Part shown: one piece after another, positions 14,399 through 59,675 of the stretch
How the letters are laid out: every line of letters starts with the position of its first letter
How positions within the stretch are numbered: the stretch's first letter is position 1
Source of the DNA: Nitrosopumilaceae archaeon
Lineage (GTDB): Archaea > Thermoproteota > Nitrososphaeria > Nitrososphaerales > Nitrosopumilaceae
Direction: 5' to 3'
Assembly (NCBI GenBank): GCA_965208905.1
Contig: OZ242365.1
Location: forward strand, 1,632,001 to 1,696,000
Length of the DNA: 64,000 nucleotides
Program-made: the position numbers and the translations under genes
The notes under the pieces: generated by a model
The model's input: only the letters and a program-made list of their open reading frames with translations
Database searches by the model: none
What the model was told of the DNA's origin: nothing

Positions 14399-16861
14399 AT
14401 GAAGCCATTTCACAAGCTCCTCGAAGTCAGACCTGACGTGCGCGACGGGACGCTGGACCTGTCTGTATATGCGGCCAACCTCGGAGACGTAGTATCCAAG
14501 ATAGACAAGCCTGCCGCCAGAGAGTACCGCGACCCTGTACTGTTTAGAGAGATGACATACGAGACTGAAGGAATGCGCAAGGCATTGAACGATATTCGTG
14601 TACGATTACAGGAAGGCAGGGGGAACGGAGTGCGCCAGTTGGAGACTAGTTTTGGCGGCGGAAAGACGCACGCCATGATAGCAATGTACCACAAGTGCAC
14701 GGAGTGGAACGCAACACGTATAGCGATAGATTGCCAGTTTCTAGACACAGCCTATACGATATGGGGGGAGATGGAGCGCCAGTTAGACGGCACAATAACC
14801 AAGATGACTGGTCAGGTTGCGCCCTCCGGAGACAGAATCTACGAGCTGCTGTCAAACAGGGACAAACCCGTACTAATATTGATGGATGAGATATTCAACT
14901 ACATAAAGAGGGCGATTGCCGTAACGATTGGCAACTCTGATCTGGCGGCCCAGACAACCACATTCATGCAGAACCTCAACGGTCAGCTTGGCAGTCTGCC
15001 AAACGTATGCCTGGTGATGTCATTATCCAACCGCGATGATGTCCTCAAGGCGGACAACAAGACTGCGCGAACGGAGAACGAATATTACGAGAAACTACAA
15101 CGCATAGCCGGACGGCACCTACAACCTGTAACCATATCTGAGGATAATGACATATCCCATATTATACGCCGTAGGCTCTTCAAGACCGACGAGGGTATAA
15201 TATCAGACCGCGCACAGGACACAATACAGTATTGTATGGACAAGATGAAGGAGGGCGGCCTCATATCTGCCGATGATGTAAAGTCATACACCACGCGATT
15301 CAGCAACACATACCCCTTCACGCCAGACGTAATAGACATACTGAACAACAGGTGGGGGTCGTACCCAACCTTTCAAAGGACACGTGGTGTGTTGCGGCTA
15401 TTGTCGCTGGTTGTACACTCAATGCTGAAATCCAAAAGAGGGTGGATTGCACCAGGCGACATAGACCTTTCTGTATCCGCGATACGGGGAGAGTTGCTCA
15501 AACATTCAGGAGACAATACCGCGAGTGTGGTTGACGCAGACATAGTTGGAAGTAGTGCGTGGGCTAGGAAAGCGGACGGGGATACGGGCGTGCGCTGTGC
15601 AACAAGCATATTCATGTACTCGTTTCCACCCAAGATAGGTCATGGCGCAACACTTGAGGAGGTAAAGCGCGCCTCGTTCACGGACCAAACATCACACTGG
15701 GTTGCGGGTGACTCGGTGGGCAAACTAAAACGGCGCTGCTTCTATCTGGAAGAGACTGATGAGGGAATGTTGTACTTTGACATTAACCCCGGCATCAACC
15801 ACATGATAGACCAGGCCAAGCGGAACGTAACTGACGCTGCCGTACATGATGCGGAGCGACATCTGTTGGACGGGGCGAGGGATGGCGGCAGGTTTGTCAA
15901 CATACACATATGGCCTGATGAGACCGAGGCGTACAATATACCGGACAGGCCGGTTTTACAGTTGATAATATGCAAGAAGAACAACCCGGAGTGGTGCAAG
16001 AGGGTGGTAGACGGAACGAACAAGTCACGCCGCACAAACATGAACGGTCTGATATTTGTGCTTCCCACGGATGGAATTGTGCTAAATGACATGTTACGTT
16101 TACAGTTGGGCGCAGAGTCCGTACACTCACACATGAAAAATACGACAGAATATACATCCGCACGACGCTCATACGTAAACTCGGAGATTAATCGGGCTAG
16201 GGAGGTGATGGGTGATGAGTTGTGCAAAAAGTACTCGGTGGTGTATGTACCGGACAGGGAGGAGGGCGTAATCAAGTTTAATGAATACCTGTTTAATCCC
16301 CGTCAGGATAGTAACATATCGCTGGATGTTCTGTTGTGGGAGCGTCTCGTACGGGACAACCAGATAGCGGAAAATATAGCTCCGGATATAGCCAGAGAGC
16401 ACGGGAGTGACGCCGATAGCGTATATGATACAATGATACGCATACCGGGCAATGCGATGCCTGCATCCTTGGAGGTTGTACGAAGGGCGTTTGAGACTGA
16501 AGAGGTGGAAGATGGGCCTGAACCGGAACCCACCACACCCGCAACGGGTGGTTCAATCTGGGGTGGATTTTCGCCTGGTGAGAGGCCTGTTGAGCCGGAA
16601 CCTCCCGAGTCAGAGGCGACGCATGAAAGGATGGTATACACAGATGTGCTTGATGCAGTAGGAGTGGCTGATATTCGTAGCATACTTTGGGCGCCACAAA
16701 AACTATCTCTTAATGGATTTACCTGTAATATAGACAAGCGTCCTGATGGAATGTATGATGTGCGTCTGGAGATGAGCGGGAAGATACCTGATAGTTTTGT
16801 ATCTACCATAAGGCCCACCAACCGGGGAAATGTGGAGATAGATGGCGGCTGGGACGAATAG
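14399..16861 (+). CDS. DUF499 AAA+ ATPase (restriction-like/BREX-related module)
   Basis: YAANLGDV, TSFGGGKTH, LILMDE, YPFTP and FQRTRGVLRLL. Confidence 0.88.
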   Translation: MKPFHKLLEVRPDVRDGTLDLSVYAANLGDVVSKIDKPAAREYRDPVLFREMTYETEGMRKALNDIRVRLQEGRGNGVRQLETSFGGGKTHAMIAMYHKCTEWNATRIAIDCQFLDTAYTIWGEMERQLDGTITKMTGQVAPSGDRIYELLSNRDKPVLILMDEIFNYIKRAIAVTIGNSDLAAQTTTFMQNLNGQLGSLPNVCLVMSLSNRDDVLKADNKTARTENEYYEKLQRIAGRHLQPVTISEDNDISHIIRRRLFKTDEGIISDRAQDTIQYCMDKMKEGGLISADDVKSYTTRFSNTYPFTPDVIDILNNRWGSYPTFQRTRGVLRLLSLVVHSMLKSKRGWIAPGDIDLSVSAIRGELLKHSGDNTASVVDADIVGSSAWARKADGDTGVRCATSIFMYSFPPKIGHGATLEEVKRASFTDQTSHWVAGDSVGKLKRRCFYLEETDEGMLYFDINPGINHMIDQAKRNVTDAAVHDAERHLLDGARDGGRFVNIHIWPDETEAYNIPDRPVLQLIICKKNNPEWCKRVVDGTNKSRRTNMNGLIFVLPTDGIVLNDMLRLQLGAESVHSHMKNTTEYTSARRSYVNSEINRAREVMGDELCKKYSVVYVPDREEGVIKFNEYLFNPRQDSNISLDVLLWERLVRDNQIAENIAPDIAREHGSDADSVYDTMIRIPGNAMPASLEVVRRAFETEEVEDGPEPEPTTPATGGSIWGGFSPGERPVEPEPPESEATHERMVYTDVLDAVGVADIRSILWAPQKLSLNGFTCNIDKRPDGMYDVRLEMSGKIPDSFVSTIRPTNRGNVEIDGGWDE

Positions 16862-19484
16862 ACTCATTGGTACGATAATACCAATAAACGAGATATCAAA
16901 GGGTGGAGCCGCAGAGAAGAACAAAAGTCGTAATAGAATCAACAACTTACATCGGTGGTGGGCTTCGCGGCCCACCACAGTATCCCGCGTAACGGCATAT
17001 GCGGCGCTTGTAGACCCACCAATAGAGGAGCATAGAGAAATGATACGAAACATGTGCGATTATGATAATACAACCAAACCTGATCGTATACTAGTACGGG
17101 ATGCCGCGCGCAAGCGAATCAAAGAGAAATGGAAAACCCCACCAAAGGTGTTGGACCCGTTCGGCGGCACGGGAGCATTACCATTTAGCGCCGCATGGTT
17201 GGGCTGTGACTCTCATTCTATAGATTACAATCCGGTTGCTGTACTTATACAGAAATGCGCATTGGAATATCCACCAAAATATGGACAGAAGTTAAAGGAA
17301 GATGTCATACAATATGCCAAAAAGGTTGGAGACATGTTGAGGGAGCGCACTGCACAATACTACCCAAGCAGCGACCACTACGGATACATCTGGTGTCGCA
17401 CTGTTCAATGTAATTGTGGATACATAATACCACTTGTACACAACTATATGCTCTCAAAGAGGCAGGGGGTTCACTTCAGGCCAGCAGCCAAGGGCGGCGA
17501 GATCAGGTTTACGGTTCACGGTAAGGGTGAGGTACCTCACCCACAAGTGGGCGGCAATCGCGGCATGTGCATGAGTTGTGGCCGCCCATACACCTACCTT
17601 GAATTGCGGGACATGATATGGGAGCATGGCTCTGCAATGATGTGTGTCGCAGTGTCGGCTCCAAAACGCGGTAAGGGTAAGACCTTTAGACCGGCGAACG
17701 CAGACGACGCGGCGCTGTACGAATCGTGCTCGGCACAACTTGCAGAGCGGCGCGAGTGGTTCCGCAAAAAGCATGGTGTGGATCCAATACCGGACATGCC
17801 AATCCACACGCCGGATGAAAGGGAGTATAGGCGCGGCGGGCCTGCGTGGCATGTGCTAGGTGTGGTCACCTATGGGCAGACGCGATGGTCACACCTCTTC
17901 AATGACCGCCAACCACTCTGCATGACAATACTATTGGAGATATTGCGCGAGGTCGAGTCGGACGTAGTCGCGCAGCATGGTCGTGAACGCGGCACCGCAA
18001 TCGTGACTTACCTCGGACTGATTATGGACAAGGTACTGGAAAACTACTGCCGGCTATCTCGATGGCGATCAGACAGTAGTGCGATTGTGGACTGCTTTGC
18101 GCAGCAGAACATAGACAAAAAGTGGGACTATGCGGAGGCGGCGCCGCACATATTCTGGCAAAACACCACTGAGTCGCTCCTGGGGGGCATGGGGGCCGCG
18201 CTTTCTAGTGACGTGGTCTGCGACGTACAGCGCGCCTCGGCGACCAAATTACCCTACGAAGACGATATGTTCGACGCGGTCTGCACTGACCCGCCTTACT
18301 ACGACTCCATGCAATACTCTCGCCTAGCTGACTTTTTCTACGTCTGGCTAAAGTGCTCTGTCGGCCATCTACACCCTGAACTTTTCCGGGGTGCACATAC
18401 GCCAAAAAAACACGAGGTGGTAGAGAATGAGGGCAACGCCATAGGCGCGACTACGGACTGCGAGGTGCGCGACAGTGACGGCTACCTAAAATTGATGTCA
18501 CAGTCACTACGCGAGATGCATCGTGTGCTGAAGCCTGGCGGCGTACTCGTACTTGTATACGCGCACAAGACCACCGAAGGATGGGAGACTCTCATCAAGT
18601 CAATACTGGACGCGGGCTTTACAATAACAGCGGCCTGGCCCATTGACACAGAGAACACATCGCGGATGGGGTCCCGCGTTGGCGGGCAGGGCACCGCGTC
18701 ACTCGCCTCATCAATATACATGGTGGGTCGCAAGTGGGAGCGCAGGCCACCAGCCGAGTGGCGTATAGTACAGCGTGAATTCCGCGAGCACACATGCGCG
18801 ATACTGGATAAGTTAATCAAGGCCAACATAACCGGCTCGGACTTTTACATCGCGGCCATCGGCTCCGCTCTGGAGATATTCGGCAAGTATAAGGCGGTGC
18901 GAATGATAGACGGTGAGACAATCGATGTGGGCTTTATTCTAGATGAGATACGCAAATTGTGCTCGGAGTTCATAGTAAAGACACTCACGACTGGTAAGGG
19001 TGGAAACATAGACAATCTCACCAAACTATACATTGTATGGAGATGGTCATATGGTAACCAAAAAGTACCATACGATGATGCGCGCAAACTCTTCACCGGT
19101 GTGGGACTGAACCTGGATGACTATACAGGTAAGGGTGGTATCGTAAAGATAAAGAAAACGAAATCGAAAAGTGAGGTACACTTACTAACGCACCAGGAGC
19201 GCGACGATGAGATACAGATTAAAGGCAGTATAGACGTAACACATCAGGCAATACGTCTACTAAATGCAAACAAACGTGATGAGATGAAGGAATTACTCCT
19301 CAGTACAGGTAATACGGGTGATGAGTTCAACGCAGTCTGTAAGGCAATCGTACAGGCGGGCCGCTCGCAGGGCGGACAGACGGACGAATCAAGGGAGATT
19401 GAACAGTTCTGGTCTGGGCGGCAGGGAGAGGTATACGAATCAACGCCGGGACAGCAAAGGATGACTGATTATAATGAAGTTTGA
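16842..19484 (+). CDS. DUF1156 adenine-specific DNA methyltransferase
   Basis: LHRWWASRP, VLDPFGGTG, TDPPYYD and VYAHKTTEGWE. Confidence 0.9.
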   Translation: MAAGTNRLIGTIIPINEISKGGAAEKNKSRNRINNLHRWWASRPTTVSRVTAYAALVDPPIEEHREMIRNMCDYDNTTKPDRILVRDAARKRIKEKWKTPPKVLDPFGGTGALPFSAAWLGCDSHSIDYNPVAVLIQKCALEYPPKYGQKLKEDVIQYAKKVGDMLRERTAQYYPSSDHYGYIWCRTVQCNCGYIIPLVHNYMLSKRQGVHFRPAAKGGEIRFTVHGKGEVPHPQVGGNRGMCMSCGRPYTYLELRDMIWEHGSAMMCVAVSAPKRGKGKTFRPANADDAALYESCSAQLAERREWFRKKHGVDPIPDMPIHTPDEREYRRGGPAWHVLGVVTYGQTRWSHLFNDRQPLCMTILLEILREVESDVVAQHGRERGTAIVTYLGLIMDKVLENYCRLSRWRSDSSAIVDCFAQQNIDKKWDYAEAAPHIFWQNTTESLLGGMGAALSSDVVCDVQRASATKLPYEDDMFDAVCTDPPYYDSMQYSRLADFFYVWLKCSVGHLHPELFRGAHTPKKHEVVENEGNAIGATTDCEVRDSDGYLKLMSQSLREMHRVLKPGGVLVLVYAHKTTEGWETLIKSILDAGFTITAAWPIDTENTSRMGSRVGGQGTASLASSIYMVGRKWERRPPAEWRIVQREFREHTCAILDKLIKANITGSDFYIAAIGSALEIFGKYKAVRMIDGETIDVGFILDEIRKLCSEFIVKTLTTGKGGNIDNLTKLYIVWRWSYGNQKVPYDDARKLFTGVGLNLDDYTGKGGIVKIKKTKSKSEVHLLTHQERDDEIQIKGSIDVTHQAIRLLNANKRDEMKELLLSTGNTGDEFNAVCKAIVQAGRSQGGQTDESREIEQFWSGRQGEVYESTPGQQRMTDYNEV

Positions 19485-22400
19485 AGACCTGAAAACAGGC
19501 ATAATGATAGAAGGTCCACAGTGGGATGGACCGGTCACATTGGAGAAGTTTGAGAGCATAGGCGAGCGTACAAAATTAACAACACGACGCGATGACGGTA
19601 ACACAAGAACGGTACGTGTAAATCTCAAAGATATACACATGTATAATACACAACACGGTACACCGTGGCGTACAAGGGCCGCCGTTGATATGCTACGCCA
19701 CAAATATGCAAGGGGTAGTGGGGCAGATTATGGCCGGATGGACCCCCTTCCGCACCAGATACAGTCCATATACCATATAACCGGCCAGTATGATGACATA
19801 AGATTCCTACTGGCAGATGAGCCTGGTGCAGGCAAGACCGCAGTAGCAAGCAGTGTAATACGCGAGTTGCAGCTACAGGGACGCGCAGACCGCACACTGA
19901 TAGTTACACCCGCACACCTCAAATACCAGTGGAAGGAAGAGTTAAAGCGCTTTGTAGGCTTGAAATCACATATAATTGAGGGCAGTACTGCTGACCCATC
20001 AGACCCGTGGCCAGACGACCACAATATTCTGATAACATCAGTTGACTATGCTAAACGGGACAAAAGACTCGCCACTCTACAACATACGGACTTTGACTTG
20101 GTGGTTGTGGATGAGGCTCACCACATGAACTCATCAGGCAAGACTGTAAGCACCAGATACAAGTTGGAAAGGGTGCTCTCGACAAGAACCACACACATGA
20201 TATTCCTGACGGCAACTCCGCACCGCGGCAAGTCTGAGAACTTCCGTTTGTTATTAAACCTGTTAAAGCCAGAACTATTCCACGATGGTCTTACACCCGA
20301 AGAGGTGGCAGTCCGCAAGGAACCGATGTTTCTGCGCCACCTCAAAACAGATATGACAGATATGGAGGGTAGGCCAATATTCAAGGCCCGTACAGTGAAA
20401 TCTCTCAAATACGAGATGTCCATACCCGAGCAGGGAATGTACAGGATGGTGAGTAACTATGTGCGCATACAGCATCAAAGATTGGTAGCGCAGGGAGAGA
20501 AGCTCGCACCATTCGTATTACTACTGATACAGAAGCGTATGGCATCAAGCACATATTCACTTCAAAAGACATTGGAGAGACGCAGGGACAAGCTCAAGGA
20601 CTATCTGGAGAGGGACGTATTCCCAAGACCCAATCTGGAGTACGAAGAAGTGGACGACGAGTACGACGAGGATGACCCCGAGCATGAGAGGCGGGATGAC
20701 GAATTAAGTGGAATAACCGCATCGCGCACACCAGAGCAACTAGAGGAAGAGATATCTGAACTGGATGACTTAGTCAAGGCCGCAAACGAGGCCGCAACCA
20801 CCAAGCCAGACAAGAAGCTCGAAAAACTACTCGATATTGTAAATAATCTTGGTGGAGACAAACTGCTGATATTCAGTGAGTACAAGGATACCATAGAATA
20901 CCTGGAGAAGAATATTGGTGAAGATACATGTCGTATTGACGGTGATATGAAGCAGGAGCAGCGCGACAGGGCCGTGCAGGAGTTCAAAGACAAATACCGC
21001 ATAATGTTGGCCACAGACGCCGCGCGTGAGGGAATGAACATGCAGTTCTGCAATGTGATGGTGAACTATGACTTGCCTTGGAGCCCCATAGTACTGGAGC
21101 AACGCATGGGCCGTCTGCACAGATACGGACAGAAGAAGGATGTCATGATACACAATATGATAGCAGACAATACAATAGAGGGGGATGTACTTGAAAGACT
21201 GTCTGATAAAATCATGGAGATTCAAAAACAGTACAAGGCAGTAGATGTTATCGGCACGATACTATCGGAGGTCAACATGAAGGATATTATGATAAAGTCG
21301 ATAGAGGGACGCGCTGCTACCGGTGTGGATGATCAGGTACAACAGGCCAAGAAACAATTGGAACAGGCACAAAAGATGCTGGAGCACACACCCGTAGACC
21401 GGGACGCGGCACTACGTGCAAAGGAAGAGATTGACGCGAAGCGTGTAGATGGTGAGTATCTAAAGAAGATGATGTATGGGATATTTGAGGGGCTTGGTGG
21501 GAAGATAAAATCCACCAATACAAAGACCACACTACAAGTACCTGATGAGTTGCGCGGTGGGCCGTTCAGGCGCAAATCCGAATCACTCGTCGGGCCGATA
21601 CAACAGATACTGTCAAGAGGCACAAAACATTACAAGCATGTAGAGTCTTGGGTTTTGGATAACTGTAAGGGAGATTTGTTAGGTGGGTCCGTGTTTGCTG
21701 GTAAGCACGCGGGACATATAGTATTTCATACGACTGAATTGAAGGATCGCGCAGGCAAGACCGTCGAGGTGTTGGTGCAGGCACATCACATTCACACGGA
21801 TGGTACAGTGCAATCCGTACATCCGGATATATTGAGTGAGTTGGAAGATGTTGGCGGTGATGCCGGGAGTAAGCCGGAGGCTAACGTGGTTGATGCGGCA
21901 TACAACGACGCGCAGGTGAGGGCAAACCAACTAAACGAAGATGAAAGGGAGTTTTGGAGGCGTAGAATCGAGACAGTGGATATCAGTAGTGGTTTGGAGA
22001 ATCTACGAATGGAGATGGGGGAGGTTATGAATGGAACGCCTGAATGGAGGGAGATGGATGAAAGAAGAAAGAGGTTGGAAGAATGGGAGGATAGCATGGA
22101 GAGGCGCGCCAGCACGGACAAGTTGTATGTGGAGGAGCCCGTTTTGATAGGATGGGTAAAGGTTGTAAAAAACAAGGAAACACAGGATACGGAGATGCGC
22201 GGCATGAACCGCAGTATGGAGATAGAACGCAAAGAGGGTTTCATACCCGAGGATGTCTCAAACAAGCGCGGCCTTGGATACGACATACTGTCAAAACATC
22301 CGGATGGCCGGGAGCGTCATATAGAGGTGAAGGCGCGGTGTTCATTTACAGGCATACAGTTTACACCCAACGAGGAGAAGGCGCGTCTTAACGACCCACA

Positions 22401-22584
22401 CTACATGCTACACGTACATGTGTTTGATGGCCAGGAATGCCGCACGCGTAGAGTCAAAGACCCATCCAAGTTAAAGACAAAGAAAGAGACAGTGTTTACC
22501 ACACCAAACTCTGAGATTGACCGTCTTGGTGAGGAATACCTTGTAGAATCGGATGTTATGAGGGGAGGTGCGCAGTTCATATAA
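19474..22584 (+). CDS. SNF2-family helicase with C-terminal DUF3883 (NOV_C) nuclease
   Basis: LLADEPGAGKT, DEAH, TATPH and EQRMGRLHRYGQ; GYDILS...IEVKAR. Confidence 0.9.
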   Translation: MKFEDLKTGIMIEGPQWDGPVTLEKFESIGERTKLTTRRDDGNTRTVRVNLKDIHMYNTQHGTPWRTRAAVDMLRHKYARGSGADYGRMDPLPHQIQSIYHITGQYDDIRFLLADEPGAGKTAVASSVIRELQLQGRADRTLIVTPAHLKYQWKEELKRFVGLKSHIIEGSTADPSDPWPDDHNILITSVDYAKRDKRLATLQHTDFDLVVVDEAHHMNSSGKTVSTRYKLERVLSTRTTHMIFLTATPHRGKSENFRLLLNLLKPELFHDGLTPEEVAVRKEPMFLRHLKTDMTDMEGRPIFKARTVKSLKYEMSIPEQGMYRMVSNYVRIQHQRLVAQGEKLAPFVLLLIQKRMASSTYSLQKTLERRRDKLKDYLERDVFPRPNLEYEEVDDEYDEDDPEHERRDDELSGITASRTPEQLEEEISELDDLVKAANEAATTKPDKKLEKLLDIVNNLGGDKLLIFSEYKDTIEYLEKNIGEDTCRIDGDMKQEQRDRAVQEFKDKYRIMLATDAAREGMNMQFCNVMVNYDLPWSPIVLEQRMGRLHRYGQKKDVMIHNMIADNTIEGDVLERLSDKIMEIQKQYKAVDVIGTILSEVNMKDIMIKSIEGRAATGVDDQVQQAKKQLEQAQKMLEHTPVDRDAALRAKEEIDAKRVDGEYLKKMMYGIFEGLGGKIKSTNTKTTLQVPDELRGGPFRRKSESLVGPIQQILSRGTKHYKHVESWVLDNCKGDLLGGSVFAGKHAGHIVFHTTELKDRAGKTVEVLVQAHHIHTDGTVQSVHPDILSELEDVGGDAGSKPEANVVDAAYNDAQVRANQLNEDEREFWRRRIETVDISSGLENLRMEMGEVMNGTPEWREMDERRKRLEEWEDSMERRASTDKLYVEEPVLIGWVKVVKNKETQDTEMRGMNRSMEIERKEGFIPEDVSNKRGLGYDILSKHPDGRERHIEVKARCSFTGIQFTPNEEKARLNDPHYMLHVHVFDGQECRTRRVKDPSKLKTKKETVFTTPNSEIDRLGEEYLVESDVMRGGAQFI

Positions 22585-26091: not shown

Positions 26092-26427
26092 GTAGTATAT
26101 TTTTCATCTTTTATTCAGCATCAGGGCAGTTCATGTCTGGAGTGGAAACATTGGTCAAATTAGCGGAGTGGAAATTGGGGTCGGAGTGGAAATCTAGGTC
26201 AGGTCAGCACTTCTTCCCACTTCAGGTCAGCACTTTCCCTGGGTCAGCATTTCTTCCCAATTCCGTTGGAGAGGAACTGTCCCATTAACGACACCTGTCC
26301 CAAAGTGGCGCTTGGAATGGAAACGGAGGTCCTGTACGATCAGGCGTTCGGAATGGAAATTGTACATCTGAGATGAAACCCCCCAGCCCCATTGAAGTAG
26401 AACATAATTCATAAACTATGTACGCTG

Positions 26428-29596: not shown

Positions 29597-29632
29597 GTTG
29601 TTGTTTAGTACCCATCCCATATAAGGGACTAA

Positions 29633-30030
29633 TTTCAATGGGCCGGGGGCTTTTGCCCCCAGAAAGGATGAAGAAGTCACACGAGGCCGAGATTGAGAAG
29701 ATACTTCAATGGGGCCGGAGGTTTTCACCCCCGGAAAGACTGTGAATACTTCCATCATCCTGTTGTTCACCCCGTCCAACATAGTAATCATCACGTTTAA
29801 GGTTCCATATAACAACGTACATAATGTATGAATCATGGTCTACTTCAATGGGGCCGGGGACGTTCACCCCAGACACCCTCAACAACGTACATAGTTTATG
29901 AATCTCATTTCAATCTGGTCGGGGGTTTCACTCCCAACATACTCAACAACGTACATAAGATATGAATGGTGGTTCGCCGCCAACATCTGTTGTACTGGGC
30001 GCAAGCCCAACTGTACAACAGGCTGGCATC
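29633..30030 (+). repeat. degenerate ~65-70 bp tandem hairpin repeats related to the tnpB omegaRNA
   Basis: TTCAAT-GG..CGGGG-loop-CCCC units at ~29633, 29705, 29844 and 29909; AACAACGTACATAnnnTATGAAT at 29811, 29881 and 29946. Confidence 0.7.
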
Positions 30031-31811: not shown

Positions 31812-32185
31812 TTTCTCTCTCGAATTGTGATACTCTGCTTCTCTGCCCGTACCTCGCGCTTGGCCCCATATTCTGTACGCTTATTGGGACTGAGTTTGTA
31901 TGGCACAGTCGAGATGGCGGACGGGTCTGACTTGGCGTCTATAATCCACCGCAGTTTGTCTCTGGCCCGAAATTCACACAGCCCAACCACTATCTCCTGT
32001 ATTATGGTCCGTAGCGAATTGGTTTGGTTGGACACGACCAGGTTCGTTTCTATCCACATAACTATCCAATAACATCGTTAGATAGATTTCAATTGGTAGG
32101 GGTTTTTGTCAGCGAAAATACACGGTATCACACCTTCGTCTGCACTTTCCCAGGCACGTGAGGCCACAATTTCTCCCCCACCCCG

Positions 32186-32248
32186 CAATTCTCCCCTTAA
32201 AAGGGACCGATACGTATCATGGCATGCGACTCGATATGTGCCGCGCGG
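32186..32248 (+). promoter_or_regulatory. TATA promoter + leader uORF, duplicated upstream of tnpB (60779-60841, minus strand)
   Basis: CCCCTTAAAAGGGACCGATACGTAT...ATGCrACTCGATATGTGCCGCGCGG at both loci. Confidence 0.75.
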
Positions 32249-32359
32249 TGGGTGATTGGTGATGGGCCGGCATGGCACGTGTGATAAGGGATGTGAGTTT
32301 GGTTTTTGGTGCGAGTTCTGCGATGGTGATATGCCAGAAGATGAAGATTGGGGGGATGA

Positions 32360-32518
32360 ATGATGAGTAATGGTGGAAATATGCGTAAAATCGCTAAACA
32401 GAATAAAAAGAAAGACAAGGTTAAGCAGAAATATAGTAGAGTTAACAATGTAGTGCCTGGTACGGGGAAACGGGGAAGGAAGCGTAAGCGAAAAGCCGTA
32501 GTGGGGAAGAGGATCTAA
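32360..32518 (+). CDS. 52-aa highly basic peptide
   Basis: MMSNGGNMRKIAKQNKKKDKVKQKYSRVNNVVPGTGKRGRKRKRKAVVGKRI*, read manually. Confidence 0.5.
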   Translation: MMSNGGNMRKIAKQNKKKDKVKQKYSRVNNVVPGTGKRGRKRKRKAVVGKRI

Positions 32519-32527
32519 TATGAGATT

Positions 32528-32599
32528 GGGTGTATGGTGTATGGAGCATAAGGCAGAGTACTATTCTGTCTGGTGTGGGTTCGATTCCCACTATATCCA
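32528..32599 (+). tRNA. tRNA-like gene 1 with extended anticodon stem (identity undetermined)
   Basis: Acceptor GGGTGTA/TATATCC+A; D stem GTGT/GCAT; stem AGGCAGA/TCTGTCT with loop GTACTAT; T arm GTGGG-TTCGATT-CCCAC. Confidence 0.7.
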
Positions 32600-32602
32600 C
32601 TT

Positions 32603-32677
32603 GGGCGCATGGTGTACGGTTGCACGATCTGACTCGGCTGTGTTAGATATGTTTGGGTTCGATTCCCGATGCGCCCA
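32603..32677 (+). tRNA. tRNA-like gene 2 with extended anticodon stem (identity undetermined)
   Basis: Acceptor GGGCGCA/TGCGCCC+A; D stem GTGT/GCAC; stem ATCTGAC/GTTAGAT with 8-nt loop; T arm TTGGG-TTCGATT-CCCGA. Confidence 0.75.
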
Positions 32678-32716
32678 TCATGACTTACTTGATGATAAAG
32701 GTTGGGGCGATGACGC

Positions 32717-32944
32717 ATGATGTGCCCTCTCCGTGATGCAGAAATACAATGTGTGTGGTGTGAGGATACCACAAGCATAACTCTATTCGTACACAGGGCA
32801 GATGACAACCGACAGTGGAGAGTAGGTAGTAAGTTTCATCGTACTGATGGAGAGGATGATGAGTGTGCTCCATGCCCACACTGCAAATGTTCGCAATTTC
32901 GGATTGTACGGTGGTTGGGAAAGGTGTATGAGGGGGCATACTAA
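32717..32944 (+). CDS. small zinc-finger protein
   Basis: CVWC and CPHC motifs; coupled to neighbouring micro-ORFs. Confidence 0.55.
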   Translation: MMCPLRDAEIQCVWCEDTTSITLFVHRADDNRQWRVGSKFHRTDGEDDECAPCPHCKCSQFRIVRWLGKVYEGAY

Positions 32945-33060
32945 TGTACAATCCCAAAAAATACAAGAAGTGCCCACTATGCGGTAAATTTGTGAAAAAG
33001 GATGGGCGATGCAAAGATGTCTTTTATGATGATGTAAGTGGGATGTGGGAGCATCTATGA
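32944..33060 (+). CDS. 38-aa CPxCG micro-protein
   Basis: MYNPKKYKKCPLCGKFVKKDGRC...; TAATG overlap. Confidence 0.5.
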   Translation: MYNPKKYKKCPLCGKFVKKDGRCKDVFYDDVSGMWEHL

Positions 33061-33224
33061 AATGTGTACAAAAGTCTAGGCGGAGTATAAAAAATGAGAA
33101 ATGAACGACACTGCCAATGTACAAGTAACATGGACGAAACATGCAATTCGCCAAACTACCATAACCGTAAAAAGAAAGTACTGCCGCCCAGTCCAAGGCG
33201 GTGTGGTTATTTTAGGGGGGTTGA

Positions 33225-33560
33225 ATGATGGGACGTAACGGTAAATCAACACTGTCTAGGAAGGATTTACTCAATAAGTATGGGATAAGTTACAAAGATG
33301 TTACAAATCTGGCGGCTAAAATACGTCTTCATTGGAGTTTGTCTTACCAATTTTATAACCCAGTTGTTGGTGGCAGGAGAGTTGGTTCTAAATTACAGTT
33401 AGATATATTGGCTGACATACCAGATCATAATTCTTCATTCAGTTTCTTATTTTCGTTAAGAGGTAAAGAATCACCGAACGTGATGTCAACGTATCGCACT
33501 AGGTTATATGAGATGTTGAGTGATATGGATGATCGACTTATGGAGGTATTGTCAAGATGA
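33225..33560 (+). CDS. hypothetical protein
   Basis: 111 aa AT-rich ORF within the micro-ORF run. Confidence 0.5.
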   Translation: MMGRNGKSTLSRKDLLNKYGISYKDVTNLAAKIRLHWSLSYQFYNPVVGGRRVGSKLQLDILADIPDHNSSFSFLFSLRGKESPNVMSTYRTRLYEMLSDMDDRLMEVLSR

Positions 33561-33774
33561 TACCCGGTTTTGGGTGTGGCGCATGGATAAGGAAATGCTA
33601 GAGCGAAACAATATGCACCCAGAACCCTGGATAAGGTGTACAAAGTGCCAACAAAATGAGTATGTGGTGGCAGAGAAATATGAAAGTAGGATGGATTGTC
33701 ATGACCCAACATATGAAACCAAATACATAGTGCATTGTCTTTGGTGTGGTGAAGAGTTGGGAGGCCACACATAA
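33520..33774 (+). CDS. small zinc-ribbon protein
   Basis: CTKC...CLWCG; true start may be later (MDKEML). Confidence 0.5.
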   Translation: MIWMIDLWRYCQDDTRFWVWRMDKEMLERNNMHPEPWIRCTKCQQNEYVVAEKYESRMDCHDPTYETKYIVHCLWCGEELGGHT

Positions 33775-33998
33775 TGGCAGACCTGGACACAGTAATCAAT
33801 GATCTGTCAAAAGAGATGGCGCGTTATGCACTACATATTGTGGAGCGTGGTCCCTGTATTGTAATAAGACTGTCTGCGGAAGAGCGAAAGAAAGTAGATG
33901 ACATATGCGCAGAGAGTCATGTAACCATACAAGACCACCTAAATGAGTATATCCGAGTTATCTTTCTGGATAGGGAGATATCAGAGGATAAGAAATGA
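33774..33998 (+). CDS. small protein, possible ribbon-helix-helix regulator
   Basis: IVIRLSAEERKKVDDICAESHVTIQDHLNEYI has an RHH-like pattern; TAATG overlap. Confidence 0.45.
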   Translation: MADLDTVINDLSKEMARYALHIVERGPCIVIRLSAEERKKVDDICAESHVTIQDHLNEYIRVIFLDREISEDKK

Positions 33999-34190
33999 CA
34001 CATTATTGTTCATGCTGTGAGGGGCTGGGAAGAAATGCCGACCTAGGGAAAGTGTTGACCCGGACTGGAAACGCTGGTCTTGTACGATCAGGCGTGCGGC
34101 GTCGTACGAGGTCAAAATACTGGGCTGAAAATGGGCCAGACCGGCGTCAACCCACATCCACGCTTTTAAACCACCGTTCCGTTGCCCAGC

Positions 34191-35108
34191 ATGGAATGCA
34201 CCCATACAGAGACGGTAACCGACCTTGAGCGTGGTGAGGTCATCTGCAGTATGTGCGGTGAGGTAATTACACACTCGATACCGGATTTGACCCAGCCTGA
34301 TCAACACTATACGTCAGAGGAGTATGCGAAGCACGCACAGAACGGTCCCTCCACGTCATTGGCGATGTATGATAAGGGGCTTTCCACGATTATCGGCTCC
34401 AACCGGGACTCTGCGGGAAATACGCTCCCGGTAGAATCAAAGCACGACTTTACCCGGCTACGCAGGTGGGATTCGCGAAGCAAGTCCCGCTCGACCGCCT
34501 CACTGGGCAAGGCCTTCATACTATTATCTTCGATAAAAACCAAACTAACCATACCGGATCATGTGGTAGAGAGGGCCGCCATAATATACCGCAAGGCAGT
34601 AAGTGCAAAACTCACCCGGGGTAGAACCATATCTTCTCTATTAACAGCATCACTATACATCGCCTGCCGTGAGAGTGGCACGCCCCGCACACTTCTTGAT
34701 CTCTCTACTGCAGCAAACATAGACAAAAGGATACTCTACAGGGACTTGGCTACCATCACCAAGAAGTTCAATATACAGCTGGAACAATACGACACATCCT
34801 CCTTTGTCGTAAAGATATCCAACAACCTAAAACTCACCGAAAGGACCAAGCGTATCGCACTGGACACACTGCTGTATATGCAAGAGAATGCGCATACCTC
34901 CGGCAGGCGTCCGATGGCGTTGGCTGCCGGATTGGTATATGCAGCCGCACTGCTTACCGGAGAGAGTTTGACACAAAAGGCGCTCTCTTGGCATACTGGG
35001 ATCAGTGAGGTGACTTTACGAAAGACATGGAGTGTCATACGGGACCTGCACGGCATACCCGGCATGCCGGTGGCTGAGATGGCCGGCACATCTGCTGCCA
35101 AAAAATAG
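34191..35108 (+). CDS. tfb: transcription initiation factor IIB paralog 1
   Basis: Zn ribbon CTH...TDLERGEVICSMCG, DKGLSTII, two cyclin repeats (RGRTI..ASLYIACR; SGRRP...ISEVTLRK); TTTAAA box upstream. Confidence 0.92.
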   Translation: MECTHTETVTDLERGEVICSMCGEVITHSIPDLTQPDQHYTSEEYAKHAQNGPSTSLAMYDKGLSTIIGSNRDSAGNTLPVESKHDFTRLRRWDSRSKSRSTASLGKAFILLSSIKTKLTIPDHVVERAAIIYRKAVSAKLTRGRTISSLLTASLYIACRESGTPRTLLDLSTAANIDKRILYRDLATITKKFNIQLEQYDTSSFVVKISNNLKLTERTKRIALDTLLYMQENAHTSGRRPMALAAGLVYAAALLTGESLTQKALSWHTGISEVTLRKTWSVIRDLHGIPGMPVAEMAGTSAAKK

Positions 35109-35228
35109 CACGCTCTTTGTCCTCCCACACTTCAATGGAATAGGACTTTCACCCTTTATCTTGCCTGTAAGCATTCAATGTGAATTCCCATATGGTGTGT
35201 TAAACGGCATGGATGCAAAAAAGACCGC

Positions 35229-36356
35229 ATGAAGGAGTATCATCCAACATGTGTGGAGCTGTGCGCCGGAGCAGGTGGTATGGCATTGGGATTGGAGATG
35301 GCAGGATGGCAGCATATTCTGCTGGTGGAGCGCAACATGGATGCGGCGCGTACCATAAAACAGAACAACCCCCAATGGCCGGTAGTATGCGCGGATCTGA
35401 CGGGCTTGGATGCGGGCCGCATACCACACTGCGACATGGTGTGCGGGGGCCCGCCCTGCCAGCCGTTCTCGACTGCGGGGATGCGCAGAGGCAAGCAAGA
35501 CAAGCGTGATGTGTTTATGCCTGCCCTGAAACTGGCAATATCATTGCGGCCATCAGTCATATTGTTTGAGAATGTGATGGGGCTTTTACACAGACAGCAC
35601 GCGCCATATCGGGCATCTCTGGAGCGTGTTGTGTGTAATGCGGGATATGCCGTGCGTTGGATACGAATAGATTGCTCGGATTACGGGGTACCACAGCGCC
35701 GACGGCGCGTGATATTTGTGGCCGCCCGCATACCCCCGTTGACCGAGTGGCCGCCGCTACCTTCCCGTGTAGACTACCCATCACTGCGCGACACATTGAT
35801 AGCTTCGGGGATGCCACCCTCTATGGTGCCGCGGCAGTTGTCATGTAGTGTGAGTCCTACCATAACAGGTGGGGGACGTAGCTTGAATAACGGCACAAAA
35901 AGCAGAAAGATGTGGGAATCACTAGGTATAGAATCCAATTCACTTGATGTATGCGCCCCAACAATAGTTGGTGGGGGGAACGGTCATGGTACATATAATT
36001 GCGGATCAGACCAGAGGCGCCAATGGGCCCGCCTGGGTGTGGATGCGCGGTCAGCCGAGCTGCTCACACCAACAATAATGGGAGGTCATAGCACATGCGC
36101 CAGATCCAATACGGCCGTTACCACATACCGTATGATGGGTCTGGACCCGCGGTGCGCCGAAGGTGGGGAGCCGCATGAGGGGCTGGTGCGCCTCTCCATG
36201 CGCAATGTGGCCGCCATCCAGGGGTTTCCCACACATTATGAGTTCTCTGGGAAAAAGGGGTCTCAATATCAGCAGATTGGCAATGCATTTCCGGCGCCGG
36301 CGGCCAAGCAGCTGGGTAAGTGGGCCCGGAACCTGCTGTCTTGTCCTAGCCCCTAG
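35229..36356 (+). CDS. dcm: orphan DNA cytosine-5 methyltransferase with triplicated TRD motif
   Basis: ELCAGAGG, GGPPCQPFS, FENVMG, PQRRRR and QIGNAFP. Confidence 0.92.
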   Translation: MKEYHPTCVELCAGAGGMALGLEMAGWQHILLVERNMDAARTIKQNNPQWPVVCADLTGLDAGRIPHCDMVCGGPPCQPFSTAGMRRGKQDKRDVFMPALKLAISLRPSVILFENVMGLLHRQHAPYRASLERVVCNAGYAVRWIRIDCSDYGVPQRRRRVIFVAARIPPLTEWPPLPSRVDYPSLRDTLIASGMPPSMVPRQLSCSVSPTITGGGRSLNNGTKSRKMWESLGIESNSLDVCAPTIVGGGNGHGTYNCGSDQRRQWARLGVDARSAELLTPTIMGGHSTCARSNTAVTTYRMMGLDPRCAEGGEPHEGLVRLSMRNVAAIQGFPTHYEFSGKKGSQYQQIGNAFPAPAAKQLGKWARNLLSCPSP

Positions 36357-39805: not shown

Positions 39806-40005
39806 ACAGTATTTACAGATCCGTCGCTTTTAAGGGGGGAATCTATGCGCGGGCGCCAGGACACGGCAACTCACATAATTCCCGGTTACGGCGACCGGAC
39901 CCGCCGGTAGTATTGTTCGGGCTCCACACGGCATGTGGGCGAGTCCACGGTATATGCGGTAGCAGTACACCTAATCCTTATATACTATAACAGCATATAT
40001 AGTGT

Positions 40006-40831: not shown

Positions 40832-40903
40832 AGCAGGGTAGGGAAGCAGCATCCCGGCGGGCCCATAACCCGCAGACCGGTGGTTCAAATCCGCCCCCTG
40901 CTA
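40832..40903 (+). tRNA. tRNA-Met(CAT), initiator type, atypical
   Basis: A1-T72 acceptor AGCAGGG/CCCTGCT+A; anticodon stem GCGGG/CCCGC with three G-C pairs; loop CCCATAA; T arm GGTGG-TTCAAAT-CCGCC. Confidence 0.9.
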
Positions 40904-40996
40904 CTAACTTAAAAAATGCAGAATTTGGTCTGTAGAGTACATTTACGGGTTCTTATGCAGATACGGCTCTTGGACAAACATGGGTGCTATACGTAA

Positions 40997-42578: not shown

Positions 42579-42785
42579 TGGAGCAAGCGCGCGCAGGGCG
42601 TTTATTCACTATACAATAACCGGAATGGTCTTGAGATACCTGGCACCTGCACCCCCTCCAAGTTATAGGCTGTTCAAAGGACGGGCGTCAAAGCCTGACC
42701 AACGAGGGACATCTAGATCTGAATGGTGGTTCGCTGCCAACATCTGCCGTACGGCAGACTGTCAATTGATAGACTCCGATAATTA
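42579..42785 (+). ncRNA. stand-alone omegaRNA (TnpB guide RNA) copy
   Basis: Colinear homology to the 3' end of tnpB (59675->59449), ending at ...GCCGTACGGCAGACTGTCAA (42765); no tnpB ORF here. Confidence 0.75.
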
Positions 42786-47451: not shown

Positions 47452-49347
47452 TTAAAGCAGTGCCTCGATTAGGATTGGTATCGTCATTATGGCCAGTATG
47501 TTGACCACTGCGACGATTACAACCGGCATGGTATCTACGGATGTAAATCGTGTAATCTTGGCTGCAACCAGCCCCATGGGGCATGTCAGCAGGGCCGCAA
47601 TCAATCCCAACCGTTCCCTGTATGCTGCATCGGGGTCAGGCGGCCCGAATCCCTCCATCATGCCCGGCGGGAGTACGGTGCTTAGCGTGTTTGTGGCTGT
47701 TCCGGAGTCCGCAAAGATGGCAAACATCGCATTCATTATGCCGACCAGCATCAGGGGCGAGGCATATATCATCATGGCCCCCATGCGCAGAGACTTGGTG
47801 ACGTCCATCTTTGTAATCAGTATGCTGGACATAAAGTGTGTCATCTGTCGGAGTATTGATGGTGTGTTTGCCGTGCCGCCTATCTCCTGCAGCCTGATTA
47901 TTATAAGCAGCACAAACGAGAGATACCTGCTGTGTTTGCGCGCCTCCATACATGCATCCTGCATCGTACTTCCCATCTCCAGTTTGGAGACAATGCCGTT
48001 CAGCAGCCGGCCGAACAGGCCGGTGTATAGTCTGCTGCGCGTCTGCTGGCGCAGTATTGTCGATATGTCCGAGCCTGCCAGTGTCTGCTCGTATACATCC
48101 TCCAGAAATTCCGGCAGTCCGCGGTCCACATTTGAGGCGCCGCCTATCTGCCGCCTGACCATCACATAGTTGGATATGGCGCCTGCCAGAAACCCTATGG
48201 ATATTGTTATGCCGGGTTCGGTATCCCATATGCCGCCACCCGGGATAATGTACGTAACCCAGAGTATGTGTACTGTGACGACGGCGGCCGCCCCTACACC
48301 AATACCGGGCAGCCACGGCTTTAGCTTGACGCCCGTGGACGGTTGGCTTGACTGCACCATGAACAGCATCATGACGCACAGTACGGGGCCCAATATGGGA
48401 CCCATAGTTAGTGTCATGTTGGTGGTGGCCGGCGTGCTGATGAATATCATCATGACCATCATGATTGGTATCATTACCGCGCATATTACCGCCATTGTAC
48501 ACAGCATGAGGGCGGCTTCCTTGTATCTTATCCAGGTCTGCTGATAGAGTTCAAAGAACTGCTCGGCCTTGGTCTCTGTATACGAGGGCACCGGCCCGAC
48601 GGTCTCATGCTTGGATATGTAGCCGTGCAGAAAGTCCTTGAACTGTTGTACGGGATGATTCTTGGCATACTCGCGCAGGGCGTCCATATGGGGTATGCCC
48701 AGTACTACCTTCTGCGTTACTATGGCCGCATCCTGCGCCAACTGTGCAAATACGTCTGGCGCATCGCGCACACTCTCAAGTGCCGTGTACAGCGTGTAGC
48801 CTACCCCCTGCATCGTAGTAAGGTACGCCAGGAAGAAGGACATCTCCTCTTCTATCTGTATCTTGCGCTGCTTGACGCGCGAACTCAACTGCATCAGCGG
48901 GTATATCATAACAATGGGACATAATGCCAGCATGAACAGCCGTACATCGGCTATGGGCGCCGCTACAAGCGGGGATAGCGTAAGCGCCAAGTGTACGGCC
49001 TTGCGCGCATGCGTATCATAGTCGTACGGTATTCCTCCCCCATACACGCGCAGATATGCGGCATATCGCTCCCGTACTCTGCGTATTGCGCGTATGTATT
49101 TTTCGACCCACATCCAGAATGCGGTAAAGTAGTCCTGACTTAGGTCTGCGACCACAAACCTGCCCTTTCGGCGCCCGCCCATATGGGGTCTTGGTATTAC
49201 ATTATGTAACATCACACCGGCCGCGGCGGCCCACAGGACAAATATCATAGTCATCCATTGGTATGAGCCATCACCAAGTATGGCTCCCGCCCAGCCCAAC
49301 GCGGCAAACGCCAGACATGCTGTCAGTCGTACCGGTATGCGAATCAA
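47452..49347 (-). CDS. type IV pilus/archaellum platform protein (TadC/FlaJ, two T2SS-F domains)
   Basis: IEEEMSFFLAYL and VDRGLPEFLEDV repeats; many TM helices. Confidence 0.8.
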   Translation of the reverse strand: MIRIPVRLTACLAFAALGWAGAILGDGSYQWMTMIFVLWAAAAGVMLHNVIPRPHMGGRRKGRFVVADLSQDYFTAFWMWVEKYIRAIRRVRERYAAYLRVYGGGIPYDYDTHARKAVHLALTLSPLVAAPIADVRLFMLALCPIVMIYPLMQLSSRVKQRKIQIEEEMSFFLAYLTTMQGVGYTLYTALESVRDAPDVFAQLAQDAAIVTQKVVLGIPHMDALREYAKNHPVQQFKDFLHGYISKHETVGPVPSYTETKAEQFFELYQQTWIRYKEAALMLCTMAVICAVMIPIMMVMMIFISTPATTNMTLTMGPILGPVLCVMMLFMVQSSQPSTGVKLKPWLPGIGVGAAAVVTVHILWVTYIIPGGGIWDTEPGITISIGFLAGAISNYVMVRRQIGGASNVDRGLPEFLEDVYEQTLAGSDISTILRQQTRSRLYTGLFGRLLNGIVSKLEMGSTMQDACMEARKHSRYLSFVLLIIIRLQEIGGTANTPSILRQMTHFMSSILITKMDVTKSLRMGAMMIYASPLMLVGIMNAMFAIFADSGTATNTLSTVLPPGMMEGFGPPDPDAAYRERLGLIAALLTCPMGLVAAKITRFTSVDTMPVVIVAVVNILAIMTIPILIEALL

Positions 49348-58834: not shown

Positions 58835-59050
58835 CTGTAAAAAGTTATTACAGATAAAAATTATTACAGATTCAGGTGTTTGGCGCGGTGGTGTGGATTT
58901 TGGGGGGATGTGGTGTCCAAAATCGGGTGAAAGCAGCCAGGCCTTATATACACCGGGTGTTTTTTCCGCGAAAAGCAGGGACCCCCTTAGGGAAGTTTTT
59001 GTTGGAAATAACTGTAATAAATTATTACAGGCTGTAATAAATTATTACAG
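58835..59050. repeat. repeated near-palindromes (CTGTAATAAATTATTACAG x2 plus degenerate copies)
   Basis: Copies at ~59012-59050; TTATTACAG twice at ~58845-58869; non-coding and AT-rich. Confidence 0.75.
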
Positions 59051-59070
59051 AAAGCTCCTGATCACAGTAG

Positions 59071-59375
59071 TAGTGTAGTGTAGTGTAGTGTAGTGTAGTG
59101 TAGTGTAGTGTAGTGTAGTGTAGTGTAGTGTAGTGTAGTGTAGTGTAGTGTAGTGTAGTGTAGTGTAGTGTAGTGTAGTGTAGTGTAGTGTAGTGTAGTG
59201 TAGTGTAGTGTAGTGTAGTGTAGTGTAGTGTAGTGTAGTGTAGTGTAGTGTAGTGTAGTGTAGTGTAGTGTAGTGTAGTGTAGTGTAGTGTAGTGTAGTG
59301 TAGTGTAGTGTAGTGTAGTGTAGTGTAGTGTAGTGTAGTGTAGTGTAGTGTAGTGTAGTGTAGTGTAGTGTAGTG
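59071..59375. repeat. perfect pentanucleotide array (TAGTG)61
   Basis: 305 bp of uninterrupted TAGTG. Confidence 0.97.
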
Positions 59376-59428
59376 TAGTAGCATACTACGATCTACTGAT
59401 CTAGGAACTGTCCCATGTACGGCGCTTG

Positions 59429-59675
59429 TCTACAGACATGCGCGTAGGTTGACAGCCTGCCGTACGGCAGATGTTGGCGAGTTGCCATTCAGAGGAGCTC
59501 CATTGAGATGTCCTTTGTTGGCTGGACTTTGATGTACAACCTTTGGACAGCCTGTGCCGGCCACCACGTCGCCAACGACACTGGGTATTGTGAGTGTCGC
59601 GAGATGTATCTTTCCTCTCAAGACCATTCCAGCCTTGTCTTGCAGACTATATGCGGTCTGCGCGCGCTTGTTCCA
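59429..59675 (-). ncRNA. omegaRNA overlapping the tnpB 3' end; right end TCAA at 59452-59449
   Basis: Terminal hairpin CTGCCGTACGGCAG then TCAA; boundary defined by comparison with the copy at 42579. Confidence 0.65.

Follow-up and report, generated by a model that had tools for sequence, protein, structure and literature searches.

Two tRNA-like genes, here called t1 and t2, lie in tandem in the genome of a Nitrosopumilaceae archaeon (NCBI GenBank assembly GCA_965208905.1, contig OZ242365.1). The analysis was centered on a window of 64,000 nucleotides (nt), positions 1,632,001 to 1,696,000 of the contig, and coordinates are those of the window unless stated otherwise. t1 (32528..32599) and t2 (32603..32677) are on the plus strand between the open reading frames (ORFs) of an operon of very small genes, and both have an anticodon stem of 7 base pairs (bp). 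We propose that the pair is co-transcribed with this micro-ORF operon, would be cut out of the transcript by RNase P and RNase Z, and does not decode, so that t1 and t2 would serve as a processing element or as tRNA-like RNAs. We give this reading a probability of about 0.35. The parts conserved in t1 and t2 are those that RNase P and RNase Z need, and the loops follow no common rule.

Anatomy of t1 and t2 and their anticodon stems

Both genes are recognized as tRNAs by two programs. ARAGORN calls t1 at 32528-32600 as 'Ser' with the anticodon ACT and t2 at 32602-32679 as 'Arg' with TCG. The Rfam tRNA model (RF00005), run with Infernal, gives t1 38.7 bits and t2 37.9 bits, both above the gathering score of 29. 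These are the two lowest RF00005 scores among the 45 tRNA matches of the genome, and a gathering-score run on the whole window lists t1 alone. Three bases (CTT) separate the t1 discriminator from G1 of t2. The preliminary description of this DNA had reported two tandem tRNA-like genes 3 nt apart, and both programs recover them.

The segment lengths are 7/2/4-5-4/1/7-7-7/3/5-7-5/7/1 in t1 and 7/2/4-6-4/1/7-8-7/4/5-7-5/7/1 in t2, in agreement with the 7-bp anticodon stems and the loops given earlier. The t1 loop, GTACTAT, has 7 nt and the canonical pattern, with U33, the anticodon ACU, and A37. The t2 loop, TCGGCTGT, has 8 nt and lacks U33, since there is no U at its second position. t1 has the G3:U70 pair, A73, and a 3-nt variable region; t2 has G3:C70, A73, and a 4-nt variable region. 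The 7-bp acceptor stem, U8, A14, G18-G19 of the D loop, the whole T-loop consensus, and A73 are intact in both genes, and both T arms contain GGGTTCGATTCCC. The acceptor, D, and T arms had all been described as normal, which holds for the acceptor and T arms and fails for the D loops. These are short, with 5 nt in t1 and 6 nt in t2; the 18 relatives described below have 7 nt, and the D loops of host tRNAs are visibly longer. For t2, the fold of lowest energy coincides exactly with the cloverleaf (z -3.11; 0 of 200 shuffles were as good), and the t1 cloverleaf lies 2.7 kcal/mol above the minimum-energy fold. The Rfam mascRNA-menRNA model gives a weak match only, at 15.2 bits.

The length of the anticodon stem is among the most constant features of tRNAs. 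Complementarity that reaches 7 pairs is not rare by itself. When the stem is followed outward, 11 of 40 host tRNAs can form 7 or more contiguous pairs, and 20 can form 6 or more (the control comprised 42 ARAGORN tRNAs after two calls were skipped, from which t1 and t2 were set aside). The added 'pairs' of the host tRNAs, however, make use of position 26 and of a base from the D stem. By contrast, t1 and t2 have a complete D stem and position 26 and, beyond these, two inserted bases on the 5' side. In the Infernal alignment to RF00005, t1 has a 2-nt insertion after position 26, and 16 bases of t2 are fitted to 11 positions of the model. What is unusual in the pair is the presence of true 5' insertions relative to both the tRNA model and all 18 relatives.

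The sequences of the two genes differ considerably, and the pairing is retained. All 23 stem pairs are standard in both; between t1 and t2, 10 pairs are identical, 5 are changed on one side, 8 are changed on both sides, and none is broken. The two-sided changes include 5 of the 7 anticodon-stem pairs, and only 3 of the 14 positions of the two anticodon stems are identical, compared with 32 of 43 positions in the scaffold outside the anticodon arm. In the scaffold trees described below, the branches of t1 and t2 have 0.26-0.59 changes per column against a median of ~0.07 (4-8 times as long). Retained pairing had been taken earlier as an argument against random decay, and these counts uphold it. 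Because the pairing is retained despite the long branches, the comparison suggests that selection keeps the 7-bp stems for their structure.

The possibility of a mini-intron, also raised in the preliminary description, has been rejected. Both anticodon arms are uninterrupted 7-bp helices with only 4-5 nt more than the normal 17-nt arm, and because neither has a bulge, a bulge-helix-bulge intron is excluded. The 3-nt 'intron' that ARAGORN assigns to t2 has no bulge-helix-bulge motif either.

A family of 71-nt alanine-type tRNAs

Single-sequence covariance models were built of t1 and of t2, and 150 relatives were searched with them. The best matches of the t1 model are ordinary tRNA-Lys and tRNA-Arg genes (44-47 bits), and with the t2 model, genes of 71 nt were detected in three further genomes. 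Starting from the t2-model matches, a pattern search, fetched regions, and a family model (alignment A4, model R3) led to a family of 18 copies (17 distinct) in 9 genomes, two of them of the window's own genus. The family loci (L149-L153 and L184-L197) are in other genomes of the same taxonomic family. Three genomes (G173, G430, and G431) appear only in one family-model tally, and no claim is based on them.

A single frame, 7/2/4-7-4/1/5-7-5/4/5-7-5/7/1 (71 nt), fits all 18 family copies. The family has an alanine-type identity set, with G3:U70 in 17 of the 18 copies and A73 in every one. The innermost anticodon-stem pair, 31:39, is unpaired in 14/18. The anticodons are GAA, AAG, GAG, CAG, GTC, and ATC, corresponding to Phe, Leu, or Asp, and A34 is found in AAG (6/18) and ATC (1/18). 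Anticodons with A34 are otherwise unusual in archaeal tRNAs. In 11 members, 95.2% of the cells are paired, 11 pairs change on both sides, and the observed covariation score was reached by none of 500 shuffles. Acceptor pairs 5-7 vary freely among these 11 members, and G3:U70 never does. A normal tRNA-Phe is also present in all five carrier genomes tested, and the family is for this reason considered supernumerary. The copies share an upstream A/T-rich motif. Their neighbors are mixed and include genes for a TraG/VirB4-like ATPase, a DDE transposase, an HTH protein, an NAD kinase, a CTP synthase, and an FAA hydrolase; the flanks of the family members have nothing in common with the t1/t2 operon. 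A literature search, confined to open-access text, found no description of such an archaeal tRNA family.

Several lines of comparison suggest that t1 and t2 probably belong to this 71-nt family. Two trees were built from 51 scaffold columns with the anticodon arm excluded; both omit host tRNAs of more than 78 nt, two tRNA-Thr genes without a detected T-loop anchor, and a degenerate copy from genome G235. In the first tree, t1 and t2 are sisters (95/74) within a clade of 17 family members (97/98). In the second, from which four long host rows were dropped, the pair is inside an all-family subclade (93/90), and the family together with the pair is split from the host tRNAs with a support of 74/100. 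Canonical tRNA-Ala is at the base of the family in both trees. The scaffold identity to the best family member is 77% for t1 and 75% for t2, and that to the best host tRNA is at most 65% and 69%, respectively. The D-stem pair set GTGT/GCAY is common to the pair and four members, in which it reads GTGT/GCAT. With the R3 model, t2 ranks first among the 23 matches of the genome at 52.0 bits but stands only 0.6 bits above a host tRNA-Ile; this gene and three host tRNA-Ala genes score 48.7-51.4 bits.

Like the family, t1 and t2 have the acceptor start GGG(C/T), GG in the D loop, GGGTTCGATTCC in the T arm, and A73, and their scaffold is conserved where the anticodon arm varies freely. G3:U70 and an anticodon with A34 are further family features of t1; t2, with G3:C70, keeps only A73 of the identity set. 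The pair departs from the family frame in the D loop and the stem length, t2 also in the loop length and t1 in the length of the variable region. Family members have a 7-nt D loop, a five-position stem in which 31:39 is usually unpaired, and a 4-nt variable region. Unlike them, t1 and t2 have a D loop of 5-6 nt, a fully paired 7-bp stem, and no upstream A/T-rich motif, and they are located inside an operon. The 2-bp extension is found in 0 of 18 relatives, and the 7-bp stem would therefore be derived if the membership is true.

The preliminary description had named homologues with normal 5-bp stems as a sign of local pseudogenes. This applies in part, as all 18 relatives have a five-position stem and none is extended, and the long stem is therefore a local derived state and not a family trait; this goes only part of the way toward the pseudogene reading. 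No homologue of the same architecture was obtained by sequence or pattern search in any of the following collections. In phage records, a 4-kb query gave no match and a 159-nt query gave partial matches only, to at most 25% of its length; the best had E = 0.04, none of 272 records covered 80% of the query, and nothing similar was found beyond the T arm. Patterns run against IMG/VR gave 0, 1, and 1 stretches, the two matches being ordinary, unrelated phage tRNA clusters. A strict pattern gave none in the GTDB genomes, one per species. A relaxed pattern gave at least 120 stretches in the GTDB species genomes, and 78 of the 80 loci examined have canonical spacing; the arms of the other two (L024 and L073) are unrelated. 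Three unrelated stretches were found in JGI metagenomes, and at none of these matches is a tRNA called. When 60 relatives were searched by BLAST with the locus, no close homologue appeared, and BLAST of the downstream operon against 400 genomes of the taxonomic family gave a 75-nt repeat as the only match.

Two unrelated tRNA-like sequences with odd anticodon arms were seen during these searches. One, in an Actinobacteria genome (L073:5867-5921), can be drawn with a 5-bp stem and a 9-nt loop or with 7 bp and a 5-nt loop. The other, on a 111-kb metagenome contig (L020:828-881), has a 6-7-bp stem and a short loop and is not called by ARAGORN. An antisense role was also considered and dropped, as the genomic matches of 11- to 14-mers from the two arms do not exceed the number expected by chance.

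A broader view takes the pair and its 18 relatives as a lineage of 'mis-wired' archaeal tRNAs in which the alanine identity is under purifying selection and from which the pair was taken out of decoding as decoys. It draws on the near-constant G3:U70 next to freely covarying acceptor pairs, on anticodons for Phe, Leu, Asp, and, in t1, Ser, on a conserved mismatch at 31:39, and on the recurrence of A34. The family could then provide regulated substitution of alanine at Phe, Leu, Asp, or Ser codons, or Ala-tRNA for a process outside the ribosome, and a mobile island would have lengthened the anticodon helix of t1 and t2, turning them into charged or uncharged tRNA decoys. We consider this unlikely as a whole.

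Proposed processing from the operon and the competing explanations

The operon is preceded by an A/T-rich motif with a TATA-like core, TTAAAAG (32186..32248, plus strand), which we infer to be its promoter. It begins with a putative coding micro-ORF of 35 amino acids (aa), rich in Cys and taken from the ORF list (32256..32363), followed by a very basic micro-ORF of 52 aa (32360..32518). The stop codon of the latter is 9 nt before t1, so that the earlier placement of the pair behind a 52-aa basic ORF was correct. After t1 and t2, the operon continues (32717..36356) with 75-aa and 38-aa Zn-ribbon-like ORFs, ORFs of 111, 84, and 74 aa, a TFIIB homologue (34182-35108), and a C5 DNA methylase (35229-36356), all on the plus strand. 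Stop and start codons overlap within the run of small ORFs, and t2 is 39 nt from the start codon of the 75-aa ORF. On reading the sequence, no A/T-rich box was seen ~25-35 nt upstream of t1. There is no T-run after t2, and no terminator-like site was found in 32044-33182. As there is no promoter box before t1 and no terminator after t2, we infer co-transcription with the micro-ORF operon as the simplest reading.

According to the mechanism we propose, t1 and t2 are remodelled members of the short alanine-type tRNA family, in which the D loop would have been shortened and two pairs added to the anticodon stem. Having no promoter of their own, they would be transcribed within the micro-ORF operon of a conjugation and defense island. 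The features recognized by RNase P, tRNase Z, and the CCA-adding enzyme are the acceptor helix, U8, A14, the D-loop GG, the T arm, and the discriminator. With the acceptor stem, the T arm, and the D/T elbow intact, RNase P and tRNase Z would be expected to cut out both t1 and t2. The cleavage would release two RNAs of tRNA size and divide the transcript of the operon between the 52-aa ORF and the 75-aa ORF. The longer arms, together with the 8-nt loop of t2 that lacks U33, would make ordinary ribosomal decoding unlikely, and selection would for this reason act on the tRNA shape (processing, stability, and possibly alanylation of t1) and not on the anticodon. The lengthened helix might remove a mis-wired, potentially harmful tRNA from translation with its shape kept. 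t1 may still be alanylated, because G3:U70 is reported in the available part of PMC11415595 to be sufficient for recognition by alanyl-tRNA synthetase (AlaRS).

A number of observations weigh against this proposal. A role in processing alone leaves the 7 bp of both stems unexplained, and two tRNA shapes exceed what punctuation of a transcript needs. The pair was found in this genome only. The descent from the family is also open to objections. A long-branch host tRNA-Cys intrudes into the family clade of the first tree, and both trees have only 51 columns and bootstraps that are not settled. The 52.0 bits of t2 are barely above the scores of host tRNA-Ile (51.4) and host tRNA-Ala (51.1), t1 has 39.8 bits and is the tenth of the 23 matches, and both are below the 67-93 bits of true members.

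The segment with the pair appears to vary among related genomes. In a metagenome run labelled as sponge-derived (X5), one contig of 1882 nt with a depth of 4.9 joins 32248 to 32709, with 35 other bases in place of the 460 nt at 32249..32708 (plus strand), which hold both micro-ORFs, t1, and t2. The contig also covers 32709-33033, the region of the 75-aa ORF, with 34 differing letters and 6 gaps, and on the far side of the 35 bases it has the promoter-like motif. The joint is weak, as it is seen in a single contig and its left side has only 25 nt and belongs to a repeated motif. Imperfect direct repeats of 30 nt (77% identity; 32337..32366 and 32691..32720, plus strand) bracket the basic ORF, t1, and t2 with a copy spacing of 354 nt, the right copy overlapping the start of the 75-aa ORF. 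The repeats may instead be two similar junctions of a ribosome-binding site and a start codon.

The absence of this segment from the relative's contig would fit a pair of relics, that is, functionless, decaying copies of family tRNAs on a small insertion, with stems of 7 bp that are accidents of insertion and deletion. Other observations point the same way. The pair has the two lowest tRNA scores of the genome and long branches, G3:U70 and U33 are gone from t2, whose loop has 8 nt, both genes lack the upstream motif common to the family, no homologue shares their architecture in the collections searched, and a formal extension to 7 pairs arises often by chance, as in 11/40 host tRNAs. Decay would be expected to produce mismatches, however, and 0/23 stem pairs are broken in either gene despite the divergence, with 8 two-sided differences. 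The same rare 2-nt insertion that extends the helix is found in both genes, with 5/7 pairs of the stem changed on both sides. Neither gene has lost U8, A14, the D-loop GG, any part of the T loop, or A73. We regard decay as a doubtful explanation, if one to be taken seriously. The bracketing repeats might also suggest that t1 and t2 are remnants of an attachment site, or landing pads for the site-specific integration of another mobile element. One family member is beside a TraG/VirB4-like ATPase gene, and tRNA genes are at 39 of 68 mapped thaumarchaeal element sites, according to the accessible text of PMC6563490. This is highly improbable for the pair, since t1 and t2 are complete cloverleaves and not part-copies, the bracketed segment has only 354 nt, no PF00589 integrase was found genome-wide at E <= 0.01, and the host tRNA matches are distant (the single-sequence models give a best of 41.6 bits for t1 and none for t2).

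The remaining explanations give the RNAs themselves an activity. As effectors outside decoding, t1 and t2 could be decoys for a tRNA-cutting nuclease, AlaRS, the CCA-adding enzyme, or an elongation factor, or t1 could donate alanine outside the ribosome. The longer stem would, in both cases, exclude them from translation. Such roles would suit an island rich in defense and conflict genes, a conserved scaffold with a variable arm, and the alanine set of G3:U70 and A73 that t1 keeps (17/18 and 18/18 in the family). On the other hand, the loops copy no host anticodon loop, no host tRNA has the anticodon ACU, t2 lacks G3:U70, and Pfam and PHROG scans identified neither a tRNA nuclease nor a tRNA-using enzyme next to the pair, and we consider an effector role improbable. 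Another proposal is that the pair decodes, with t1 reading AGU (or AGN) and inserting alanine and t2 reading a four-base codon or shifting the frame, which would make them mistranslating or recoding tRNAs. The t1 loop follows the canonical order of U33, anticodon, and A37, A34 is found repeatedly among the family anticodons, and natural mistranslating tRNAs are known from bacteria and humans (PMC11415595, in the part available). Moreover, tRNAPyl and mitochondrial tRNASer(UCN) are active with a stem of 6 bp, a small D loop, and a variable region of 3 nt (PMC7609411, excerpt). But the natural long-stem tRNAs named in that excerpt reach only 6 bp and compensate with a single connector base, where t1 and t2 have two (PMC7609411). 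In addition, t2 lacks U33, and no frameshifted gene was noticed in the operon, for which no systematic search was made. Decoding by the pair thus seems quite improbable to us.

The island and comparison with known tRNAs

The genome is a single contig of 2.21 Mb with 45.6% G+C. It has tRNA introns, TFIIB homologues, and an archaeal AmoA gene, and the host is therefore an ammonia-oxidizing archaeon. The window encodes a TraG/VirB4-like ATPase (452-2287), a TadC-like membrane protein (47452-49347), and a canonical tRNA-Met of the initiator type (40832-40904, called by ARAGORN). The gene content of the island also includes a NotI-like nuclease, three DNA methylases, an HNH nuclease, a nucleotidyltransferase, and transposases of the IS66 and TnpB types. 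Integrative-conjugative elements (ICEs) of Thaumarchaeota carry VirB4, TadC, and TFIIB homologues, and the content of the island agrees with this (PMC6563490, accessible text). No tyrosine integrase (PF00589) was found genome-wide at E <= 0.01, and the same search was positive in 14 of 14 control genomes. The G+C content is ~50% over ~200 kb (genome ~1,585,000-1,790,000, around the window at 1,632,001-1,696,000), compared with the mean of 45.6%. Since no integrase was found and the raised G+C extends over ~200 kb, 'ICE-like' is used only as a label, and the region is called an ICE-like or island-like defense island without fixed borders. The preliminary description had suggested decoys, primers, or recoding tRNAs as possible roles of the pair; Pfam scans showed no reverse transcriptase nearby.

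The 35-aa ORF and the other small ORFs of the operon match no Pfam or PHROG family at a meaningful score. A search of 5.8 billion proteins with the 52-aa basic peptide returned only itself (the one candidate, in a 45-aa form). The 111-aa ORF has no relatives in 400 genomes of the class or in IMG/VR. A second copy of the leader motif is at 60779-60841 on the minus strand, 90% identical over 63 nt and upstream of a TnpB-like gene, and a related copy is at 39814-39842. The motif with the TTAAAAG core thus precedes three differently oriented genes or operons, and the island encodes three TFIIB homologues; transcription specific to the island through this shared motif and these factors is possible.

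Some further features of the island were noted. Three genes at 14399-22584, for a DUF499 ATPase, a DUF1156 methylase, and a helicase of the SNF2 type that carries a NOV_C domain, together look like a restriction-like defense system. A long tandem array with a 10-nt period (58990-59434) adjoins the 3' end of the TnpB-like gene (59430-60740, minus strand) and might be related to the guide RNA of this gene or to an element end. A 38-nt repeat is found upstream of large genes at 26314-26351, 34062-34099, and 63266-63303, and it has matches at another place of this genome and in four further genomes of the genus. Three repeat units of ~65-70 nt (29631-29995) are located between two minus-strand genes, and the two copies of another 38-nt repeat (89% identity), at 29958 and 42715 (42715-42752), are 12.8 kb apart. 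The repeats at 29631-29995 and 42715-42752 might be iterons or the ends of an inner element.

If a 7-bp stem is kept through compensatory changes, a tRNA scaffold can be selected for something other than normal decoding. The larger result is the family of extra tRNAs that was found in ammonia-oxidizing archaea, in which a conserved alanine identity pair goes with anticodons for Phe, Leu, or Asp. If its members are charged and used, they would represent archaeal encoded mistranslation or a use of Ala-tRNA outside the ribosome. Should the pair be no more than a processing element or a relic, it would be a modest curiosity of one genome island.

Among known tRNAs, a first comparison is with those that have a lengthened anticodon stem. 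Anticodon stems have 5 bp, or 6 bp in tRNAPyl and mitochondrial tRNASer(UCN), both of which combine the longer stem with a small D loop, a variable region of 3 nt, and only one connector base (PMC7609411, in the part available). Like these tRNAs, t1 and t2 combine a long stem with a small D loop and a short variable region (3 nt in t1 and 4 nt in t2), and as in mitochondrial tRNASer(UCN), G18, G19, and the T-loop consensus are kept (same excerpt of PMC7609411). Unlike both, t1 and t2 have two connector bases and one more stem pair, and unlike tRNAPyl, they do not have a CUA anticodon. Among the papers listed in the literature search, none mentioned a 7-bp anticodon stem.

A second comparison is with hybrid-identity tRNAs, such as bacterial tRNAProX and human G3:U70 variants, which join the acceptor identity of one amino acid to the anticodon of another. 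The same combination is seen in t1 and 17/18 relatives, which have G3:U70 and non-alanine anticodons. Odd features of the anticodon loop are thought to damp decoding by hybrid-identity tRNAs (PMC11415595); the examples in the accessible portion of PMC11415595 are bacterial or human, and none has a lengthened stem like that of t1 and t2.

t1 and t2 also resemble the tRNA genes of phages and mobile elements in being extra tRNA shapes on a defense-rich accessory island. Some phage tRNAs with altered anticodon loops escape host anticodon nucleases and are still canonical decoders with 5-bp stems. Finally, some processing signals have the shape of a tRNA, among them mitochondrial tRNA punctuation and elements of the mascRNA type; they are excised by RNase P and RNase Z and need only the acceptor stem, the T arm, and the elbow. 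The known cases are eukaryotic or organellar, whereas t1 and t2 are archaeal. The parts that these signals require are the parts conserved in t1 and t2.

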